Shown here: in pieces, positions 728 through 33,422 of the stretch | Position numbering within the stretch: the first letter of the stretch is position 1 | How the letters are laid out: each line of letters opens with the position of its first letter | Virus record (IMG/VR): IMGVR_UViG_3300028888_001839 | Location: 121,001 to 185,000 of that record | Strand: one strand, 5' to 3' | Length of the DNA: 64,000 bases | DNA from: a virus | Taxonomy: Duplodnaviria > Heunggongvirae > Uroviricota > Caudoviricetes | Notes under the pieces: generated by a model | Database searches by the model: none | What the model saw: the letters and a program-made list of their open reading frames with translations, nothing else | Told to the model about the DNA's origin: nothing | Program-made: the position numbers and the translations under genes

Positions 728-3700
728 ATGGCATTGTTTGCACACAAAGGAGCAACAAATATGCCTACTAGCAAGGACTTTTCCGTAGAAGACGAAGCCT
801 ATCTCGCTACCATAGCCGCAGAGCCTAAGATGACGATGGACGAGGTAGGCGCTGACATTGAAGAGCACGGACACGTCCCAGTAACTCCCGAAACCGCAAC
901 ACAAGACCCCTTCACGGCGAAGGGTTCTCTAGCTTATGCTCTTGACGAAGCCCTTTCCGCCGATACCGATTTGGAGAAGACCATAATGACTAGGGACAAG
1001 AACGACCATCTCGATTCGCATCTTACCAACCCTACCGACGATTTCCGCGACGAGACGAAGGGAGAGGTGGAGGGTACGACCTCTACTCCGCAAGGTCTTA
1101 TACAGCCCGTAGAATCCAACAAGGTAGGCGAAGGGCTAGAGCCTACAATCCAGCAGGACAAGGCGGTGCATGTGAAGGATTCCCTTGCTGAAGCCCTAGA
1201 TGCCATCACGATGGACGGAGCGGAGGAGATAGAGGCTAAGCCCCCAATCGGGAAAGATCCCGAGCCAGACCTTTCCAAGTACAATGAGGAGGAGGCTTCT
1301 CACATTCCCCTCAAAGCCCCAAAGATTCCACCTTCTCTAGGAGGATCGGAGGATACTCCCGATGCCAATGGGCTAGTATATGTCTCCGCAACCTTCACGG
1401 TAGATCCCGACAAGTATGTGTCCAACAACTATCGTCCTACCAATATGGGGAAAGCTCCAGATGCCCTTGCTGCACTAAAGCAGAAGAGGGATGCCATGAA
1501 CTCCAAGCCCGCCGCAAATCCTGAAGAGGAGGCGGCTCTTTCCGATTTGGGTACTCCCGAAGCGAAGGAGTCTGCTGCTTCTCCCGACGAGCCTACGCCA
1601 CAACAGGAGGAGGAAGCCGCAAAGGATGCGGACAAGGAGCAGAAGGAAGAGATTGAGGTAGAGGTGAAGGAGGAGTCCGCGTCAGCAATCCCTACCCCAA
1701 AGAAAGACGACAAGCCAGCACAGGACGAAGCCCCAGAGAAGGAAGTGCTGGACTATGCAACCTTCATCGACGGCTCATCTTTCATCTGCTATGACGAAGT
1801 AGCCGACATAGACTATTCAAAGATAGCGATGGATGCCGGCCCGAAGAAAGCCCCTACAAGGGCGAACTGCCAGACCACGTTTGCGCAGTGCAGAGCAAAA
1901 AATCCGCTCTTTTGCCGTTTCCACGGCCCTAAACTACTCGAGGCGGACATCAAGACGGCCCTCAAGTCCACTGTCGGACCGGGCTGCGTGGTACAGGTTA
2001 CGAAGGACAAGAATTCAAAGAACAAGTTCACGTTCCGTCTTACCGTTGGATGCCCGCCCTCCAAGAAGAAGATGGTGGAGAAGATGGTGCATATGTTCCT
2101 TACACAGAATCCGGGAATCACATCGTCTACCGAGGACTGGAATCTTGTGGGCAAGCACAAGCAGACCCAAGAGTTCGAGATGGATATCCTTCAGGCAGAT
2201 AATCCTCCGCAAAAAAATACTTGGGCTGATCAGGCTAAAGAAGATACCAAGGAAGCAATCAAGAATCATGAGAAGCAGGCCGTTGTAGGCGAGACGGCTC
2301 CAGCATTGGAGAAGAAAGCCGCAAAAGGAGAGAAGTGGCAGACGGTAGACGAAGACGTGGAGAACGAATGGGCTGATATTATAGACAACCTACACAAGAC
2401 TGCCATTCTTAACAACAATGAGTTTTTAGTCAACTTCAACAAGATAGCGAATCAGTTTGATGCCGCTCACGATGCTGGGGATGCTAATGGCTTGAAGAAA
2501 TCCCTTGAAGCATTGAAGGAAGAGATAGGGAAGTATGACGAGATAACAGGTGCTAAGAAGCCAGAGGCGGCTACGGTAGAGGCAGAGAAGGCGGTAGAGG
2601 GTGTTGAAGAGGAGACACCAAAGGGAGATGTTACGGAGGAGGTGGCTTCGGAAGAAGTGACGGAGAAACCGACAAAGAGCGAGGGAACAGTACCGGAAGA
2701 CGACGTAGCGGGTGAACAGACACCCCAGAAGAAAGAGAGTGTGGCAAAATCGGCAGGTGGCAAATCGGGCGACATGGCATCTTTCCCGATGGCACAGGAA
2801 GCAGAGTTTGCAGAAGCCTCTAAGGGGCACAAATTTGAAGAACTCTTTACTGGGTTTGAGACGAACAAGGACGGTTCGTATACTCTTAAGGCGAACCCGC
2901 ACAAGTTGTCTAGCCATGTAGAGAATCTTGCGAAAGCCCTTCAGAAAGCGGGATATGATGCAAAGACGATTCTGAACAATAGCGACGACTTGGATTTGGT
3001 GATTAAGCCGAAAGAGGAAGCGGGGGCGGCAAGCAAAGAGGAGGGCAAGCAGGGCGGCACGGTTCTACCTGCCCCTAATGCAGTTTCAAAGCAGAATGGC
3101 GGCAATGAGGCTTCTTCGCCACATAGCGAAAAAGTAAAAGAACTCACCAACAAGATTGGAGATATGCAGCAGCAGGTAAAGAGCATGGTGGAGAATGGCG
3201 GAGATACAGACACTATTAACACCATAAACCAGACATTGACTGGTGCTATTCTCACATTGTCCAAGCTGTCGAACCAGTACGATACCATAGACGAACTGGA
3301 GGCCCAGATGATAGCCGCAGGCGAGGATTCTGACTTGTTTGAGGTAGACAAGACCTTTGGGCAGAAGCTCATAGAAGATTCCAAGAAGAAAGCGGAGGAA
3401 CAGGCGAGTGCTCTACTCGGTGAACTCGAGTCCGCTTTGTCTGGAATCGAGAAATCGTTTGCAAGCGCACAAGAGACGGCGGCCGACAAGAAGAAGGGAG
3501 AGGTTGCTAGTTCCGTGGAGCAGACGGTAAAGAACCTCAGTGCCTATGTCTTTGGTGGCAAGCGTCCTCCGCAGGGGGTTGATTCCGTTGTGGACTATCT
3601 CGACTATCTGAAGGACGAACTAGAATCGGATGCGGAGGAAAACTTCACACCCGATGAGATGGCGGAGATTGAAGGCCAGTATTTCCTAGAGGATGCATAC

Positions 3701-4264
3701 AAAGCCACGAAAGCAGCGTCCAAAGCAATGGATGATGCAATAGAGGCATTTAAGGACAAGATGGACGAAGTACCAAGCCAAGGCGAAGCCTATGGGACTT
3801 ACCAAGCGGACATAGAACAGATGCAGAAAGCGATAGCATCACAGGCGGCGGAGATTATGGCGGCATTCGGCGCTTATAAGCAGGCATTAGAGAAGTGCAA
3901 GTACGAGGCGGATGCGGCGAAGAAACTTGCCGATTCTAAAAAGAAGTTGGAGGGAGGAGGAGCGTCAGGAGGAGAAAACAAGAAGCCTGTAGAGGGGTTC
4001 GACTTCGATGCTTGGCAGAAAGCACAAGGCAATCAAGGCGGAGAAGAGCCAAAGCAATCGGCACAACCTTCGCAGAAAGCCCAACAGAAATCCACTCTCA
4101 CCGACGATGAGAAGAAGGCAAAGATAGCCGCTATGTCTCCGAAGCAGAAGGTGGAGGCGGCTGTCAAGATATTCAAGAAGAAGCTCGCCGCAAACCCGAA
4201 CGATGCGGATGCCAAGGCCAAATTGGCCAAGTACGAGGCCATGCTCGCCAAGCTCAACAAGTAG
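728..4264 (+). CDS. large acidic/Lys-rich protein, putative capsid-internal (ejected) protein
   Basis: 1178 aa; repeated (A/T)xD(A/E) motifs (TMDE, ALDE, TMDG, AMDA); CRAKNPLFCRFHG motif shared with neighbouring proteins; coiled-coil-like C-terminal half. Confidence 0.65.
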   Translation: MALFAHKGATNMPTSKDFSVEDEAYLATIAAEPKMTMDEVGADIEEHGHVPVTPETATQDPFTAKGSLAYALDEALSADTDLEKTIMTRDKNDHLDSHLTNPTDDFRDETKGEVEGTTSTPQGLIQPVESNKVGEGLEPTIQQDKAVHVKDSLAEALDAITMDGAEEIEAKPPIGKDPEPDLSKYNEEEASHIPLKAPKIPPSLGGSEDTPDANGLVYVSATFTVDPDKYVSNNYRPTNMGKAPDALAALKQKRDAMNSKPAANPEEEAALSDLGTPEAKESAASPDEPTPQQEEEAAKDADKEQKEEIEVEVKEESASAIPTPKKDDKPAQDEAPEKEVLDYATFIDGSSFICYDEVADIDYSKIAMDAGPKKAPTRANCQTTFAQCRAKNPLFCRFHGPKLLEADIKTALKSTVGPGCVVQVTKDKNSKNKFTFRLTVGCPPSKKKMVEKMVHMFLTQNPGITSSTEDWNLVGKHKQTQEFEMDILQADNPPQKNTWADQAKEDTKEAIKNHEKQAVVGETAPALEKKAAKGEKWQTVDEDVENEWADIIDNLHKTAILNNNEFLVNFNKIANQFDAAHDAGDANGLKKSLEALKEEIGKYDEITGAKKPEAATVEAEKAVEGVEEETPKGDVTEEVASEEVTEKPTKSEGTVPEDDVAGEQTPQKKESVAKSAGGKSGDMASFPMAQEAEFAEASKGHKFEELFTGFETNKDGSYTLKANPHKLSSHVENLAKALQKAGYDAKTILNNSDDLDLVIKPKEEAGAASKEEGKQGGTVLPAPNAVSKQNGGNEASSPHSEKVKELTNKIGDMQQQVKSMVENGGDTDTINTINQTLTGAILTLSKLSNQYDTIDELEAQMIAAGEDSDLFEVDKTFGQKLIEDSKKKAEEQASALLGELESALSGIEKSFASAQETAADKKKGEVASSVEQTVKNLSAYVFGGKRPPQGVDSVVDYLDYLKDELESDAEENFTPDEMAEIEGQYFLEDAYKATKAASKAMDDAIEAFKDKMDEVPSQGEAYGTYQADIEQMQKAIASQAAEIMAAFGAYKQALEKCKYEADAAKKLADSKKKLEGGGASGGENKKPVEGFDFDAWQKAQGNQGGEEPKQSAQPSQKAQQKSTLTDDEKKAKIAAMSPKQKVEAAVKIFKKKLAANPNDADAKAKLAKYEAMLAKLNK

Positions 4265-4315
4265 GGCTTTTGCTCATTCGCTATACTTTCATCTTATGGG
4301 TTAGGAGATTTCACG

Positions 4316-7300
4316 ATGGCTATCAAGAAGGATGCGGCCAAGGCAGACATAGGGCCGAAGAAGCAAGTTAAGGCGACTTTCGCAGAGTGTACGGCGGAAG
4401 AGCCGTTGAAGTGCAAGTACCATGGAATCAAGCAGTTAGAGGGGATATTAAACTCACTATTCCAGAAGCACGGAGAGCAGAACACCTCTGGGCTGGAGAA
4501 ACAGGACGGGAAGTATCTTCTGCACTTCGCTTCCGCACAGCACCCCAAACAGGTGGTATACGACTTAATGAAAATCCTAGACGGCAAGGGATTTGGATGC
4601 AAGTATCTAGGGACAGACGAATCTGGAAGCGGTATAAACTATGAGATAGCACCGAAGGACGGCAAGGGTTTTGTCACCCCGGACGGAGAGGCGGAACTGG
4701 AAGATGCCGACATTCTCTCTTCTTCAAAAGCACCAGAGAACAACACCGTATCCAAGACCACCGTCACGAAGGAAGATCCGTTCGCTGAACTAGAGAACAT
4801 AGATACAGATGCCCTTATAGCAGAGAACGAACTGGATGCCGACCTTCTTGAAAACTTCGACGATTTGGAAGGGATAGACGAAGAGGCCACGGAAGACCTA
4901 GAGGCGGAACTGTTGGGGAACAACGAGTTCGACGATGAGATATTCACGGAGATGTCGGACGAAAATCAGGCGGCTGCGAAACTCACGGACGAGGACATAA
5001 AGAACCTCGTGTCCTTCAAGGGCGTCACGGATGACCATTTTGAGCAGAATCCCGACCTTCTTGATACCTACAAGGCGATAATCACCAACGGGAGGAATCC
5101 CAATGGTGATGCGCTAAACGAGCATCAGAAGGTGTGGTGGAACGACCTGCTGTCTAAGACGAAGAATGCGAACGAGTCGGAACTGCCTGCACTTAAAGTG
5201 CTTAAGGCTACGATGGCGAAGGTAAACGGAGGAGGAGAGCAAGGAGGAAAAGGTGAAAAGGGCGCCTCTCAAACCCCGTCCGAAGAGGACTATGAGAAGT
5301 TCGTTGGGGAACTTATCAAAGACCCGTTCCCGCCATTTATCAAAACCGATGCTAAACTTCTTAAGGAACTAGTTGAAAAGGGGACGATGAACGGAACTAC
5401 CCCAAGCAAGGCGGACTTAGAGAAGTGGGAGGATGTTTACGGCAATGGGAAGGGAACGGACGGAGCGGTCAAGGATGCGGTTAATGCCGCTTTTGCAAAA
5501 CTGAAGATGGATGGTGGAGGAAAATGGAGAAAGGAATTGACAGATGACGACATCGTAGCAGCATTCTCACCTGCATTTACAGGTGGGAACTTGTCAACCA
5601 ATTCTCACTATAAGGATTTATACAAATCGGTTATCACGAACCATCTCAATCCCAATGGGAACCCTCTAACAAATGGGCAGCTTGCATGGTTTAAGGGGGC
5701 ATCGGAAAAAGCCCATGCCGCAGGTGTCAACAACTATGCCGTTGAACTGTTGGACAAGATGCTAGAAGAAAAGGGGATGATAGAGAAGAAAGGCAACCCT
5801 TCAGGAGAAAGTGAAGAGAAACCGACGAAGGAATCTCTCATAGGTGAGATGGGCAATGTGATCGCCAAGATGAAGGGTGAAGGGCTTGACCTTACCTGGG
5901 ATGCGAAGAAGGGGAATGCCCTAGGCAAGGCTTTCGAGGATGCTATTAATGCTGACGACATAGCAGGTGCGGAGAAGGCGCTGAAAGACTTCAAGGATTA
6001 TGTGGAGTTCCTAGAGAGCGGTGGAGATGCCCCGGAGGATGATGAAGAGGGCATTACGACAGAGGACATAAAGGACTTCTTCACCAAATGCGGGTACACG
6101 GGGGGAGTCATGCATTCGGAAGACAACCTTGCCGCGACGAAGGAGGCTCTTGAAACAGGGAAATTCATGGGCAAGGCTCTCACCTCAACCAACAAGAAGT
6201 GGTTTGCGGCATTAGCCAAAAAAGAACCAGACCACAAGGTTGCTAATGCCATAAACAAAATGCTTTCCGCTGACAAGAAGCCCCACAAGTCAGGGGAAAA
6301 GGGAGCTGCAAAGGAAGCACTAGTCTCAGCTTTGAGTGGAAGCAATGAATCAATGGTTACAGATGAAATGCTTCAGCCATTGGAGCATGACGATGCTAAG
6401 TTCCCGCAGAACATTACCCAGAAGGAACTAGACGAGGCTATCAAGAAGGGCAAGAAGTTAGGCGGACATGGTGGGCTAGGTACAAGGCTAGTAGAGATAG
6501 ACGGCAAGAAGTATGTGTGCAAGGCTGCAACCGGCACTGGGGCTTCCGTCATTAGGAACGGATTCAATGCGGACATGGCTTATCGTGCTGGCGGAGTGTA
6601 TGCTCCAGATGCACAGTTATATGAATTTGGGGATGGGAAGACATACAAGCTCTCGGAGTTTATTCCGGGCAAGCGTCTCATAGATGTCTGGCAGACTGCG
6701 GATGAGGCTAAGAGGGATGAAATTCGCAAGGAACTTCTTAAGGGCTATCCTCTCGATGTTCTCTTCTCCAACTACGACGTGCTTGGCACTTCGCCGGAGG
6801 ATTCCATAACGGTCACAATCCAAGGGGCTGACGGAAAACCACAGAAGACCCATGTAGCTTTCAACAACATTATGATAGGCGACGATGGCCATGCCTATCG
6901 TGTTGACAACGACGGCTCTTTTGCAATGACTGGCACAGGAGGGATAAAGCACTCTAGCGGAGGGGGATATATAACGAAGGTGGAGGCGGAGAAGTGGGGG
7001 AAATGGGAAGACAGGCAATGGATAGACGATTTCCGCACATTGAGGAGGAATGAGAAGAACCTTGGGATATTCGACCGCTACTCTACTGCGGACATATTCC
7101 TTTCGGCAGGAAACATAAATCTTGATTCGGCGGTAGGCACGTTGCCGAAAGGAATACAGAAAGCATTGGCGAAGCCACTCTTTGAGATGAAGCAGATGAC
7201 TTGGAGAGCACTGAACCTATCTTTGGGCGGATACAAGAACGATGCTTTCGTGTCTATGGCTTTGGATGCGTCTTATGAGGCTTCCAAGAGAGGGCTAAGG

Positions 7301-21734: not shown

Positions 21735-22277
21735 ATGAATTTCTTTCAATATCTATACGGTGAAAAAGTTGCAGAAGACAAGAAGAGCGAATACAATGAG
21801 AGGAAGTATTATCTTGTCAAATGCAAGGATGGAGAGCATGAACTGCGGAAACTCATTGACTACATAGGGAGAAACGGAAATGGCGGACATTCGTTCGACA
21901 TAGTAGTAGACCCTGGTAGCAAAGATCAGGAACGGCATTTCTTCTGGGATGGGGACGGCCCCGATCGAATAGATTCTATCGTTGAAACAAAGACTAGTGA
22001 CGATAAGGAACTTGTTGGGATTCTTCTTACGGCATTGGAAAGAGTTCAAAGGCTAACATTCGCAGAGGGCTCTTCAAGCGATGATGAGGCCAAAGTCCTT
22101 AAGACTGCATTGAATAATATCCATGATATAATTGAGCCGCTTCTTAGTGGTGTGGAATATGAAGATGACTTGAGGGATTCATTGAGAGAAGTTCTTTTCG
22201 CAGTCAATAGTAGCGATGATTCAGCAGAAAAGAAATTAGACCATATCAAATACATTGTTGAGGCAGCATTAAAATAG
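21735..22277 (+). CDS. hypothetical phage protein
   Basis: 180 aa, AGGAG SD, GHSFDIVVDP...DGDG.DRI motif. Confidence 0.7.
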   Translation: MNFFQYLYGEKVAEDKKSEYNERKYYLVKCKDGEHELRKLIDYIGRNGNGGHSFDIVVDPGSKDQERHFFWDGDGPDRIDSIVETKTSDDKELVGILLTALERVQRLTFAEGSSSDDEAKVLKTALNNIHDIIEPLLSGVEYEDDLRDSLREVLFAVNSSDDSAEKKLDHIKYIVEAALK

Positions 22278-22317
22278 ACAGATGCCATTCTCTTTGCCAA
22301 TTTTGGCATATTTTAGA

Positions 22318-24732
22318 ATGGCAGACATTTCGTATAAGGATTTGATAGCACCATCGTTCTACGGGCTATGGAACGATGTGGTAAACCAGAAGTACCCAGA
22401 AATCTGGTTGGCAGGTGGTCGTGGATGCATAGACGGCGACACTCTTATTGACACACCAAAAGGGTGTGTGAAAGTTCGAGACTTCGATGGCGGACTCATA
22501 TATTCTATTGGTGAGTATGGACAGGTTGTTGAAACGATAGCTTGTAGGCCGATACGATACACTAAAGAAGACCTGTTTCGTGTTAATGTAGGTAGCAAGT
22601 CTATTTTAGTGACGGATGAACATAAGTTCCTTACTAAGAATGGGTGGAAGCGAATTAAAGACATTAGCGAAGGAGAGGCTATTGCTTTCTACGACTCTTC
22701 CTATTGTCAAAAACCCCGTCAGCCCATTCCTTCTTCAATAATTCAGACTGCTTCTTTCGATGTTCCTCAGTCCAAGGTTTGTAGATGCCGTTCTTCCATC
22801 GTTCCTTTGCATTTGAAGAAAGACTCGCTCTACCACTTTCTGAGACATTGTGCCGAATCCCCTGAAGTGTCGCACGAAGATGCTCTCCGTTTGATGAGAA
22901 CACTTCTAGGTTTGATATATCGTTATTGGCAGGATTTCCATCTTTGTGATGAACTACCTCCGAAGGAAGGAGAAACCTACCTAGATGTTTTTCAACAACT
23001 AGCCGATGTTCTTGGATATAACCGTTGTCGTTTGCATTCGGATGGTCAGGAACACGAACAAAAATATATCCATTATGAGCAACGAATCTACCACCGTTCC
23101 AAGAAGGATTGTCGCACCCTTTCCTTGGGCAAACATTCTGTAAGCAAGGGAAATGGAATCTTACAAAGGCTTTCTGGATTGCTTTTGGAGACCTTCCCAT
23201 TAGTTGAGCAATCTCAAAGGAACGAAGACCTTGCTTACAGTATTCTGCTAATTGTAAGACTTGTTCTTTCGTCCATTTCACATTCGGATTCTTTGGAGGA
23301 CGGTCTTTCCGAATCGGATGCTTACGCCCCTCCCAAAGGTTATCGGGGGGCTTCCAGCCTTCAAATGCTTTCCGACATGCTTCGGCATACTGTTCACGAT
23401 GAGTCATATAGTGATTCCTTTCTAATAAAAGAGAATGAGTGTTTGCACGACCTCCATTATACCACATGGATGCCCATTCGGTCAATTAGATTTGAGAAAA
23501 AAGATTACTATTACGATTTGTTCGTTCCAATCTACAACAATTATATTGCAGAAGGATTTGTAAACCACAATTCAACGAAGTCATCGTTTGTCTCTACTTG
23601 CATACCGCTTCTAATGGAGATGAATCCACGTCTCCACTGCTGTTGCTTCCGCAAGTTCGGAACTAACCTTGCTGATTCAGTCTACTCTCAATTCGAGTAT
23701 ACTATCAATGAGAAACTACGTCCGATAGCCGACCATTGGGTGTTCAAGCGTTCACCTCTAAAGATAGTGAACTCACGAACGGGGCAGCAGATTCTATTCC
23801 GCGGATTGGATGACCCGCAGAAGGTGAAGTCGTTAAAGGCACCGTTCGGGTACTTCGGCCTGATTTGGCTGGAAGAATTGGCTGAGTTTGATGGGATTGA
23901 GGAAGTCAGAAACGTCCTGCAGTCGTTGCGCCGTGGCGGTCACTACTTCCAAACCTTTTGTAGCTACAACCCACCTGAGACTAGCTCAAATTGGGTAAAC
24001 CATGAGGCAAGCGTTCCACAGATAGTAGATGGGAAGCTCTATCGGTATGTCCACCATTCAGATTACAGAACTGTTCCTCGCGAATGGTTAGGAGATGATT
24101 TCTTTACTTCCGCCGAACTCCTGCGATCGACAAATGAGAGAGCATTTAGACATGAGTACCTAGGAGAAGTCACTGGAAATGGCGGAGCGGTATTCCCGAA
24201 TGTGGTGCCGCTAGAAATGTCGGATGAGATGATTTCCCATTTCGACAGCAGACGTTTTGGGCTTGACTTTGGTTTTGCACTAGACCCGCTACACTATTCG
24301 GCTTCTCACTATGACAAAAAGCATAGAGACCTCTATATTTGGGATGAGATAAACGAACTGAACTGCACCAACATTGCGCTTGCAGAACTATTGAAAGCAA
24401 AGAAGGATGATATCGGCTTCAACTACATAATGTGCGATGCAGCCGAGCCGAAGTCGATTGCCGAACTAGAAGGATTGGGAGTAAATGTTCTGCCCGCTCA
24501 GAAGGGGCCAGATTCAAGAAGATTCTCATATCGTTTCTTGCAGAGCCTTGCTCATATTTACATCGACCCCATTAGGTGCCCAAAGACTTACAAGGCATTT
24601 GTACAGTGCGAATACCTGAAAAACAAAGCTGGGGAGTTTATTTCACGATACCCTGAAAATGGAGGAGACGATCCAATCGACTCCGTAAGATATGCCTTGA
24701 TGGATGATGCAATCGACGCAGGACTCTTCTAA
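22318..24732 (+). CDS. terL: terminase large subunit (PBSX family), intein-containing
   Basis: Walker A GGRG|STKS split by an intein; FRGLDDPQKVKS; Walker B IWLEE; YNPP; nuclease GLDFGF, CDAAEPKSI, DPIDSVRYA. Confidence 0.93.
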   Translation: MADISYKDLIAPSFYGLWNDVVNQKYPEIWLAGGRGCIDGDTLIDTPKGCVKVRDFDGGLIYSIGEYGQVVETIACRPIRYTKEDLFRVNVGSKSILVTDEHKFLTKNGWKRIKDISEGEAIAFYDSSYCQKPRQPIPSSIIQTASFDVPQSKVCRCRSSIVPLHLKKDSLYHFLRHCAESPEVSHEDALRLMRTLLGLIYRYWQDFHLCDELPPKEGETYLDVFQQLADVLGYNRCRLHSDGQEHEQKYIHYEQRIYHRSKKDCRTLSLGKHSVSKGNGILQRLSGLLLETFPLVEQSQRNEDLAYSILLIVRLVLSSISHSDSLEDGLSESDAYAPPKGYRGASSLQMLSDMLRHTVHDESYSDSFLIKENECLHDLHYTTWMPIRSIRFEKKDYYYDLFVPIYNNYIAEGFVNHNSTKSSFVSTCIPLLMEMNPRLHCCCFRKFGTNLADSVYSQFEYTINEKLRPIADHWVFKRSPLKIVNSRTGQQILFRGLDDPQKVKSLKAPFGYFGLIWLEELAEFDGIEEVRNVLQSLRRGGHYFQTFCSYNPPETSSNWVNHEASVPQIVDGKLYRYVHHSDYRTVPREWLGDDFFTSAELLRSTNERAFRHEYLGEVTGNGGAVFPNVVPLEMSDEMISHFDSRRFGLDFGFALDPLHYSASHYDKKHRDLYIWDEINELNCTNIALAELLKAKKDDIGFNYIMCDAAEPKSIAELEGLGVNVLPAQKGPDSRRFSYRFLQSLAHIYIDPIRCPKTYKAFVQCEYLKNKAGEFISRYPENGGDDPIDSVRYALMDDAIDAGLF
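22679..23407 (-). CDS. HNH homing endonuclease nested antisense inside the TerL intein
   Basis: NPSWNGG...GYIQEHRLVVEKHLGR.L...EVVHHKDGNPANNDISNL; own SD AAAGGA and own promoter. Confidence 0.9.
   Translation of the reverse strand: MTHREQYAEACRKAFEGWKPPDNLWEGRKHPIRKDRPPKNPNVKWTKEQVLQLAEYCKQGLRSFEIAQLMGRSPKAIQKAFVRFHFPCLQNVCPRKGCDNPSWNGGRFVAHNGYIFVRVPDHPNANDNGYIQEHRLVVEKHLGRFLLPSEVVHHKDGNPANNDISNLEVFSSNGEHLRATLQGIRHNVSESGRASLSSNAKERWKNGIYKPWTEEHRKKQSELLKKEWADGVFDNRKSRRKQ
23456..23485 (-). promoter_or_regulatory. promoter of the nested HNH gene
   Basis: TTGACC-18bp-TATAAT with TGTGG extension, matching the phage consensus. Confidence 0.8.
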
Positions 24733-30354: not shown

Positions 30355-30897
30355 TTAATTAAGACCTGCAATTTTAGATGCTCTTCTGTAATTGAAAGAC
30401 TTTGGTAACCGTTTTAGGGAAGGGACCTGATATGTCTCATCTACATTCAACCATCTCCATAGGAAATTCCGGTAAGTCTTCAATATCCCATTACAACACT
30501 TCATCACACAAACCCTTTCAAAGCCATAATCTCTTGTAGCTGTAGCACTCTCAAAACACACGATAGGGATTCCATCCAATGTTGACATCATTACACGTTT
30601 TGCATGGTTATTTGTGTGAATGTTCCAGTAATTCCTAGACCTCTTAATTTTGGAATATACAGTTTCAGGGGATTGTTTCTTCCCCTTGAAATGGTTTCTA
30701 GTGTGCTCACTTCGATCAATTAGTTCTAGGTTCTCAATCCGATTATCGCTTTTGATTCCATTTTTATGATGAACATCTTTCCCTCTTACTGCATCTTCTC
30801 CCCAGTATTTAATTGCAATCAGGCGATGCTCATCAATTCTCTTTCCGTGAATTTTGAGACTTTTGTATTTGTTTGGTGTTCCGTCTTTCTTTTTCAT
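30355..30897 (-). CDS. free-standing HNH homing endonuclease with NUMOD-like C-terminus
   Basis: RIDEHRL...DVHHKNGIKSDNRIENLEL. Confidence 0.9.
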   Translation of the reverse strand: MKKKDGTPNKYKSLKIHGKRIDEHRLIAIKYWGEDAVRGKDVHHKNGIKSDNRIENLELIDRSEHTRNHFKGKKQSPETVYSKIKRSRNYWNIHTNNHAKRVMMSTLDGIPIVCFESATATRDYGFERVCVMKCCNGILKTYRNFLWRWLNVDETYQVPSLKRLPKSFNYRRASKIAGLN

Positions 30898-32783: not shown

Positions 32784-33269
32784 ATTAGAAATAGCATTGA
32801 TTCGTGTCTTAAGCTCTATAGAAGGAGGAACTTTATCAACATATTTCCAGATAAATCCTTTTTCCTTCTTACGGATTCCTTTGCAACAGTCCTTTACATG
32901 AGGTCTGTCGAACCCATAGTATGACACAGCAGAACAAGACTCATAGACGGCTAGCAGGACACCCGATAATGAAAACTGTCCTACCATCTTCTTATTATTC
33001 ATTGTATGTGTTTTGAAGTAATTCAATGTTGCGATAGACAACTTCTTTCTAGTCTCTTCGGGAAGTGTTCGCCCTAACATATGCTTTTGTGAATGGCGAG
33101 AACGAGGAATCAATTCAAGATTTTCAATCCTATTGTCTAACTTATCCCCATTCTTATGATGAACGTCCATTCCTTTGCAGGCTTCCTCTCCCCAGTGCTG
33201 TATAGCCACAAGACGATGTTCGTCAATTCGTTTGCCGTTGACTTTTCTTGCTTTGTATTGGTATTTCAT
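32760..33269 (-). CDS. free-standing HNH homing endonuclease, paralog of 30355-30897
   Basis: RIDEHRL...DVHHKNGDKLDNRIENLEL; likely start MKYQYK; stop codon lies inside the tRNA-Glu gene. Confidence 0.88.
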   Translation of the reverse strand: MKYQYKARKVNGKRIDEHRLVAIQHWGEEACKGMDVHHKNGDKLDNRIENLELIPRSRHSQKHMLGRTLPEETRKKLSIATLNYFKTHTMNNKKMVGQFSLSGVLLAVYESCSAVSYYGFDRPHVKDCCKGIRKKEKGFIWKYVDKVPPSIELKTRINAISNAGVGKLV

Positions 33270-33422
33270 AACGAAAAATAAAAGTCCGTAATGCGATGAG
33301 AGCCGCATTGAATGCGGGCGCATAACGGACAAATGGTTGTTGAACTTCATAGGGCTCTCATCTCCTATTGGTAGAACGAGTGGTAGTATACCACAAACCA
33401 TGCCGTGATGGCAACTACAAAA

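Follow-up and report, generated by a model that had tools for sequence, protein, structure and literature searches.

An HNH endonuclease gene antisense to a terminase intein in a Caudoviricetes virus: a probable two-strand selfish element in the Walker A loop of TerL

In this study we describe an insert in the terminase large subunit gene (terL) of a virus of the class Caudoviricetes, found in a 64,000-nucleotide stretch of DNA (IMG/VR record IMGVR_UViG_3300028888_001839, positions 121,001 to 185,000), the whole of which is referred to below as the window. The insert is very probably a selfish element that uses both strands of the same DNA, combining an intein in the Walker A loop of TerL with an HNH homing endonuclease encoded antisense to the middle of that intein. 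We observe coding on both strands, selection that follows the HNH frame, conservation of the expression signals, recent allelic exchange and a wide distribution in a single codon phase. An earlier note on this DNA, made from the sequence alone, had proposed that an intein and a separate antisense HNH nuclease form one mobile element, and the open frames, the selection, the signals and the signatures of transfer all support that proposal.

Results

The terL gene of the window is a continuous open reading frame (ORF) on the plus strand, whose product is assigned to the terminase large subunit in PHROGs (phrog_3717, 3.5e-38) and whose extein, with its ATPase and RNaseH-like nuclease domains, matches Terminase_3 (PF04466, 3.8e-27) and Terminase_3C (PF17288, 5.7e-6; 27.2 bits, cut-off 26.7). 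The start of the gene is probably the ATG at 22318, giving a protein of 804 residues, since the sequence MADISYK found there opens the TerL of all relatives. Within this frame lies a contiguous class-1 intein that opens with CIDGDT, carries VTDEH as block B and closes with VNHN before Ser+1 of STKS. Across 40 inteins at the same site, C1, the block-B His66, Y362, the block-F Asp364 and the final pair His381-Asn382 are invariant. The intein has the sequence features of its class, with C1, a TxxH block B, a block-F Asp, and a C-terminal HN followed by a Ser+1 nucleophile. The Pfam profile Intein_splicing is split over residues 94-430 of the terL ORF. In an AlphaFold2 (AF2) model built from the 40-sequence alignment, the two ends of the intein (residues 1-95 and 345-382) form a HINT fold with a predicted local distance difference test score (pLDDT) of 85-98, and a Foldseek search of the PDB places this fold with the Ssp DnaB, Npu DnaB and Mtu RecA mini-inteins (probability 1.0, root-mean-square deviation 1.4-2, about 95 columns). 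Pfam, the 40-intein invariants and the model therefore all confirm the 382-residue TerL intein with normal splicing blocks that the earlier note had described. Removal of the intein restores the Walker A junction GGRG-STKS and leaves an extein of 434 residues, compared with about 450 in intein-free homologues. terL is an essential gene, and the interrupted form must yield a working terminase, because two phages that carry it, Ymer and PHS3, form plaques. We infer that the whole insert is removed from TerL by protein splicing.

The two splicing halves are separated by a long middle for which we found no Pfam, PHROG or PDB sequence match, and Foldseek matched only the HINT part of the model to the PDB. 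Its pLDDT falls below 50 over residues 96-144, 208-240 and 333-342. These searches agree with the earlier statement that the sense-frame middle has no recognisable endonuclease motif, and the real conserved fold that had been named as a possible objection was looked for in Pfam, PHROG, PDB and Foldseek without a match. The coordinates of all features are given in Table 1.

Table 1. Features of the terL locus in the window, with mean pairwise differences among the aligned loci at sense codon positions 1/2/3
Feature	Coordinates	Strand	Evidence	Differences at positions 1/2/3
terL ORF, 816 aa from ATG 22282	22282..24732	+	Terminase_3 3.8e-27, Terminase_3C, phrog_3717 3.5e-38	
N-extein, ends GGRG, first half of the Walker A loop	22318..22425	+		
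Class-1 intein, 382 aa, contiguous ORF	22426..23571	+	Intein_splicing 1.8e-12	
N-terminal HINT splicing half, residues 1-95	22426..22710	+	AF2 pLDDT 85-96	0.31/0.26/0.58
Sense read-through segment, residues ~96-344	22711..23457	+	Frame open, protein not conserved	
C-terminal HINT splicing half, residues 345-382, ends HN before Ser+1	23458..23571	+	pLDDT 89-98	0.27/0.22/0.45
HNH_3 homing-endonuclease gene (putative), 242 aa plus stop (stop codon 22679-22681)	22679..23407	-	Pfam, PHROG	
HNH overlap				0.20/0.415/0.186
Shine-Dalgarno sequence AAAGGA, 8 nt upstream of HNH ATG	23416..23421	-		
Sigma-70-type promoter TTGACC-18-(TG)TATAAT for HNH (predicted)	23456..23485	-	11/12 positions matched	
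C-extein, STKS... to stop, TerL ATPase and nuclease domains	23572..24732	+	Pfam, PHROG	0.21/0.14/0.59
Co-conversion or recombination tract (candidate), ~150 extein codons	23572..24021	.	Synonymous differences, window vs L001	

The minus strand of this middle holds an intact gene. Its ORF encodes 242 residues from the ATG at 23407, or 268 if counted from the TTG at 23485, and its 3' end overlaps the last strand of the N-terminal HINT half. The product matches HNH_3 (PF13392) with a score of 41.8 bits, above the cut-off of 24.8 (E = 8e-11), and the PHROG family phrog_10730, 'HNH endonuclease' (1.9e-29), so that the 242-residue reverse-strand HNH nuclease read at 22679-23407 from the sequence alone has been borne out by both databases. 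The gene is intact in seven aligned relatives, where the protein is 61-93% identical, and the HH..N..NN..EH core (VVHHKDGN..NNDI.NLE....N.EH), with the catalytic His/Asn/His, is invariant in all eight aligned sequences. Sequences in cultured Pectobacterium phages are 46% identical to the protein. A weaker HNH_3 relative, covering 31% of the query, occurs in Bacillus phage IEBH, where it is annotated as a free-standing HNH gene, and annotated free-standing relatives are found in other phage records as well. A phmmer search of PDB sequences with the HNH protein gave no match. Its AF2 model, built from eight sequences, is of mediocre quality (mean pLDDT 68), and the best PDB match found for it by Foldseek is the homing endonuclease I-HmuI (1U3E), a weak one with an E-value of 0.31 over 69 columns.

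That both strands are truly maintained as coding was examined in relatives whose DNA could be recovered. Five of these (L007, L008, L010, L011 and L012) encode TerL proteins of about 800 residues that are 60-91% identical, and four are more distant (L013-L016), three complete TerLs among them being 40-44% identical. In the window and all nine relatives the antisense HNH gene is intact, the terL frame is free of stops across it, and the phase of the two frames is the same. When the HNH protein was held fixed and its synonymous codons were resampled (10,000 trials at each of six loci), 7-10 sense-frame stops were expected per locus, and a stop-free frame arose in at most 2 of the 10,000 trials at each locus (P<=2e-4). 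For the window the mean was eight stops and P(0) about 1.5e-4, so the stop-free condition of both strands over about 730 nt, to which the earlier note had drawn attention, lies far beyond chance. The other two antisense frames of the window HNH gene contain 13 and 8 stops. Free-standing HNH relatives mostly show 1-14 stops in every antisense frame, counted over short matched stretches, and the three that have one stop-free antisense frame have it in a phase other than that of the window. The demand for openness is visible in the HNH protein itself: in this phase a sense stop arises wherever an HNH codon of the form NTT, NTC or NCT precedes a codon that begins with A, which forbids Ile, Met, Thr, Asn or Lys directly after Phe, and these pairs are absent from the HNH.

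The two frames are not constrained equally. As Table 1 shows, the splicing halves and the C-extein have the normal signature of a plus-strand gene, while in the HNH overlap the signature is reversed and the second sense position changes fastest. Sense position 2 pairs with HNH position 3, so the fast sites in the overlap are the wobble sites of the HNH gene. The same DNA that encodes HNH proteins of 61-93% identity gives, in the sense frame, translations that differ at 51% of residues on average. The flipped pattern of substitution and the conservation of the HNH protein together indicate that selection acts on the HNH protein, and that the sense frame only needs to be kept open. The constraint that had been expected on the HNH frame was thus found by codon-position differences, and it is absent from the sense middle.

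The HNH gene is preceded by signals of its own. The Shine-Dalgarno (SD) sequence AAAGGA reported earlier is present at 23421..23416, 8 nt from the ATG, and in all six aligned loci it is kept as AAAGGA or AAGGAG about 8 nt from the start codon. The promoter that had been called a consensus phage promoter at 23456-23485 is likewise present and conserved, but it is of the bacterial sigma-70 type and unique in the window rather than a recurring phage consensus: it is the best sigma-70-like site in the region, and a search for TTGAC-N15-17-TGNTATAAT matched it alone in the 64 kb, with 0.00 matches expected. The same DNA, read on the plus strand, encodes the first strands of the C-terminal splicing half. 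The promoter's -35 element ATTGAC is invariant in six aligned loci and its -10 element GGTATAAT is kept in five of the six (TATACT in L012), whereas the spacer and surroundings diverge. Third positions that are synonymous in the sense frame are invariant at 4 of 8 sites inside the promoter and SD elements compared with 5 of 47 outside (Fisher p = 0.019). These data support, but do not prove, independent expression of the HNH gene in this clade.

The history of the element was followed by sliding neutral-site divergence between terL alleles. Between the window and L007 this divergence is 0.03-0.27 across most of the intein, with one 30-codon bin at 0.47, compared with 0.5-0.7 in the rest of terL, and the comparison with L008 is alike. 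Similarities of extein and intein are also incongruent: L010 has the closer extein (9% amino acid difference) and a distant intein (41%), and L008 the more distant extein (24%) and the closer intein (18%). In a further IMG/VR relative, L001, the exteins match those of the window at 99.5-100% identity, yet the same site carries a mini-intein of 131 residues that is only about 51% identical to the window intein over the splicing parts (49% of residues differ). Downstream of the intein these two genes differ at third positions by 0.33-0.57 over about 150 codons and by 0.00-0.20 beyond them; over the first 60 codons the flank of the window is slightly closer to that of L007 (0.37). This pattern has the appearance of an intein exchange in a near-identical background, in which about 450 bp of flank were apparently co-converted and either of the two alleles may be the recombinant. 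The low intein divergence, the incongruent extein and intein similarities and the sharp breakpoint all point to transfer of the element between diverged terL alleles. Inteins at this site come in sizes of roughly 380, 350, 325, 240, 225, 185, 165 and 130 residues, and in one locus, L105, the sense frame is open over a decayed antisense remnant that is interrupted by a stop and no longer has the catalytic residues. Both the size series and this remnant fit a homing cycle of invasion, decay and deletion.

The arrangement is common among phages. A scan of IMG/VR with the HNH alignment gave 491 relatives, of which the best 80 were examined for layout. In 66 of these the HNH gene is antisense within an ORF of 400 residues or more, usually 750-900. 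HNH identity among these 66 loci goes down to about 38%. Nineteen of the 66 host ORFs were scanned against Pfam; Intein_splicing was found in 18, in most of them spanning the HNH region, and all 19 have intein and/or terminase or helicase domains. The exteins include Terminase_3 and Terminase_6N and, in locus L067, a DEAD/ResIII helicase. In that locus (positions 1278-5426; IMGVR_UViG_3300001765_000047) the antisense-HNH intein lies, in the same phase, in a 1383-residue DEAD/ResIII/Helicase_C protein, which points to switching of host genes between P-loop proteins. Codon position 1 of the host lies opposite HNH position 1 in 66 of the 66 cases. The directly complementary phase would be easier to keep open than the observed one, as it requires only that TTA, CTA and TCA be avoided. 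A fixed phase that is not the easiest one argues for a single origin, followed by radiation and host-gene switching.

Two of the host phages are in culture. In Pectobacterium phage Ymer (OP748252.2; locus L103, 1107-3371) CDS0009, a 754-residue 'hypothetical protein' adjoining the portal gene, is TerL with its intein and contains an intact, unannotated antisense HNH ORF. About 130 nt downstream of the stop of this ORF, within the first terL codons on the other strand, there is a terminator-like hairpin with a T-run (L103 3304-3325, plus strand of the locus, which is the HNH strand), a possible terminator of the HNH transcription unit. In Pseudoalteromonas phage PHS3 (KX912252.1; locus L104, 1224-3350) the HNH gene is annotated and terL appears truncated at 391 residues, when it is in fact a continuous ORF of 708 residues across the HNH gene. 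A free-standing HNH gene between terS and terL was considered for PHS3, as joining the annotated coding sequences gave many stops, and was rejected on the continuous stop-to-stop ORF. Similarly, the 'half TerL' of P0065 (L016) was considered as a split intein and turned out to be the choice of a gene caller on a truncated contig whose frame is open.

Discussion

The observations above can be joined in a simple model. On the plus strand the intein and TerL would be made as one polypeptide, in which HINT halves of about 95 and 38 residues are joined by some 250 residues of reverse-complement reading, and protein splicing would remove the insert and restore GGRG-STKS. The minus strand would provide an HNH_3 endonuclease of the free-standing type, probably related to I-HmuI and with an N-terminal helix-turn-helix-like region, which in this clade would be expressed from its own sigma-70-type promoter and SD. 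When related phages infect the same cell, this enzyme may cleave or nick their terL alleles at the insertion site or close to it, and repair would then transfer the intein together with the HNH gene and part of the adjoining extein to the cut alleles. Selection would keep the HNH protein, with only stop codons forbidden on the sense frame. Because insertions and deletions must also keep the terL frame, the HNH gene may be shielded from frameshift decay.

Several points weigh against this model. Splicing, transcription, cleavage and homing are all inferred from sequence. What comes from RNA libraries amounts to three unstranded contigs of 200 nt at low depth, without strand or expression information. 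Upstream of the HNH gene in phage Ymer no strong sigma-70 match was found, so different clades may express the nuclease in different ways. Every close relative found in the databases has a mini-intein or a longer intein at the site, and the natural target of the HNH may be something other than the empty allele. Finally, the AF2 model places helices in the sense middle at residues 150-171, 185-204, 243-262 and 266-285, with pLDDT 63-88 and an overall predicted template modelling score of 0.69, and some structure may be present in the read-through segment.

The last point is the argument for a different reading, in which the sense middle folds into a working domain, such as a DNA-binding or a regulatory module, and the region yields a functional protein from each strand. 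We consider this unlikely: the middle has no family, PDB-sequence or Foldseek match, half of its residues (51%) differ between relatives with second codon positions the fastest, and variants with deletions of many sizes exist at the same site. Another reading would make the HNH ORF a young, silent passenger on its way to decay and the intein a mini-intein with a junk linker. Decayed and deleted versions do exist and HNH expression is unproven, but an ORF that stays intact across TerLs only 40-60% identical and across the 66 IMG/VR loci, with HNH identity down to about 38%, with substitutions piled up at its third positions and with a conserved promoter and SD, makes such a passenger very improbable.

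HNH proteins adjoin terminases in HK97-like phages, an example of an accessory nuclease in packaging. The HNH might have ceased to home and be kept as a packaging accessory nuclease or as a weapon against competing phages, with the intein merely tolerating it. Its place inside terL, the free-standing HNH genes in IEBH and other phages, and the fact that purifying selection is silent on which function is selected would all agree with this, and yet the protein belongs to HNH_3, its best (weak) fold match is a homing endonuclease, the signatures of transfer and co-conversion are typical of homing, and mini-intein alleles and decayed remnants are frequent enough to show that packaging can dispense with the nuclease. 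Taken together these points leave that role distinctly unlikely. The least probable reading of all, to which we give almost no weight, is that TerL is synthesised in two pieces which a split intein joins, and that the open sense frame is incidental. Such a 'fractured gene' is the described result of the entry of a free-standing endonuclease gene into an intein (Dassa 2009, PMC2677866), and gene callers or annotators have split the gene in L016 and PHS3; the sense frame, however, is stop-free in every instance examined, against 7-10 stops expected, and the long ORF is continuous in both of those cases.

The two-strand selfish element, which we prefer to these alternatives, has known precedents. 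Antisense LAGLIDADG endonucleases have been recorded in the DnaX intein of Synechocystis and a SpoVR-like intein of Chloroflexus (Gorbalenya 1998; Gogarten 2002, both as cited in bioRxiv 10.1101/2025.01.02.630785), and a survey of actinophage inteins, including those of TerL, describes endonucleases of the LAGLIDADG and VSR-like types on the antisense strand and EndoVII-like ones out of frame (Gosselin, Arsenault and Gogarten, bioRxiv 10.1101/2025.01.02.630785). In that survey HNH occurs only in frame, the in-frame middles are unstructured, and an origin from free-standing endonuclease genes invading inteins is proposed. The novelty that the earlier note had implied was therefore overrated, as antisense endonucleases in inteins had already been described in these works; the two-strand architecture as such is known, and the HNH_3 nuclease is a new variation on it. 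The present element resembles the described cases in its contiguous ORF, in a middle between the splicing blocks that encodes an intact endonuclease in its reverse complement and has no recognisable fold in frame, in its TerL host, and in phylogenetic evidence of ongoing transfer. It differs in that the nuclease is an HNH_3 protein and so belongs to neither the LAGLIDADG nor the VSR-like sub-type. Unlike the actinophage cases, the hosts here are rumen, gut and environmental phages and phages of Gammaproteobacteria, the family is large (66 of the best 80 HNH relatives) and always in one codon phase, and, at least in this clade, the nuclease gene has a promoter and SD that are conserved and lie over the C-terminal splicing half.

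Other comparisons are instructive. In the fractured genes of Dassa et al. (2009, PMC2677866) a free-standing endonuclease gene on the same strand lies between the halves of a split intein. These genes share with ours an endonuclease with its own expression signals at the canonical insertion point (N4-C2) and an essential gene of phage type. They clearly differ in having two host ORFs, a same-strand endonuclease and trans-splicing, whereas here the nuclease is antisense and a single host ORF is present in 10 terL loci and 66 IMG/VR loci. In-frame HNH inteins (1997, as cited in bioRxiv 10.1101/2025.01.02.630785) have a nuclease of the same superfamily at the same internal position of the HINT domain; the nuclease there is a domain of the intein and is made with it, in contrast to the separate protein on the other strand found here, whose expression is separable from that of terL. 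I-HmuI (1U3E), of the free-standing or intron-encoded phage HNH type, has in common with our protein the HNH_3 catalytic core and accessory DNA-binding modules; the match is weak, and the N-terminal Myb/HTH-like region and C-terminal helical tail are apparently not shared. In the literature searched, in which the 2025 actinophage preprint and Dassa 2009 were the relevant papers, we found no description of an antisense HNH in an intein, nor of the abundance, the fixed phase or the promoter over the splicing domain that mark the HNH_3 version.

The intein of most teaching is one polypeptide whose endonuclease is in frame, and antisense nucleases have been treated as rare curiosities. The case reported here is one of true coding on two strands over about 730 nt, held over deep divergence, in which the strand selected for its protein can be read out, and it bears both on how overlapping antisense genes stay open and on the view of intein origins in which splicing came first and the endonuclease later. 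The family is large, occurs in terminase and helicase genes, and has been missed or mis-split by gene callers and GenBank annotators. Phage annotation is affected directly, with TerL called 'hypothetical' or truncated and the HNH left unannotated. If splicing takes place as we suppose, intein engineering would gain natural HINT domains that tolerate arbitrary inserts of about 250 residues. Ymer and PHS3, as cultured phage-host pairs, make the mechanism directly testable.

A broader proposal, which we put forward tentatively and regard as rather less than an even bet, is that all antisense-HNH inteins descend from one ancient capture, that they form a dominant and overlooked class of P-loop inteins in environmental phages, and that antisense embedding is adaptive. 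If this were true, embedding would shield the nuclease from decay by frameshift and deletion, and a host-type promoter would allow early expression of the HNH, uncoupled from the late expression of terL. Antisense damping of terL would also be possible, and resident mini-inteins could be displaced.

Additional observations

The virus record that contains the window is complete, with a length of 251.8 kb and inverted terminal repeats. A blastn search of terL against GenBank phages gave no match. Contigs identical to the window at 100% were found in two sheep-gut metatranscriptome runs, X1 (21737-21944, 22159-22363 and 22929-23128) and X3 (23921-24071); they are unstranded and of low depth and may derive from DNA. 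A third run probably represents DNA from relatives. The contigs cover a small share of the stretch and suggest the ruminant gut as the habitat of this phage.

The TerLs of five relatives (P0029, P0034, P0039, P0046 and P0049) contain a second mini-intein of about 130 residues near the C terminus, reading IDAC...VHNC followed by RYA, so that the gene has two intein sites; the TerL of the window has the uninterrupted IDSVRYA at this second site.

Two mycobacteriophage genes show other associations of an HNH gene with a host gene. In Mycobacterium phage Bipolar, gp76 (NC_028823.1; locus L017, 761-2767) is an N6_N4 DNA methyltransferase of 668 residues that matches Pfam in two stretches and, on the same strand but in another frame, contains an HNH_3 homologue; it showed no intein domain and may be another read-through arrangement. 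In Mycobacterium phage Constella (MH399772.1; locus L018, 857-2656) the annotation divides a C-5 methylase into gp104 and gp106, with the HNH gene gp105 nested in another frame in the 3' part of gp104, a gene fractured by HNH insertion.

The genome of the window phage also contains three further weak HNH_3-like matches, two in the window on the minus strand (about 30673-30840, and 33087-33305) and one outside it (G000:C1:97509-97706). With E-values of about 5e-6, identities of 35-39% over the core and open frames of 123-231 residues, they are probably free-standing HNH genes.

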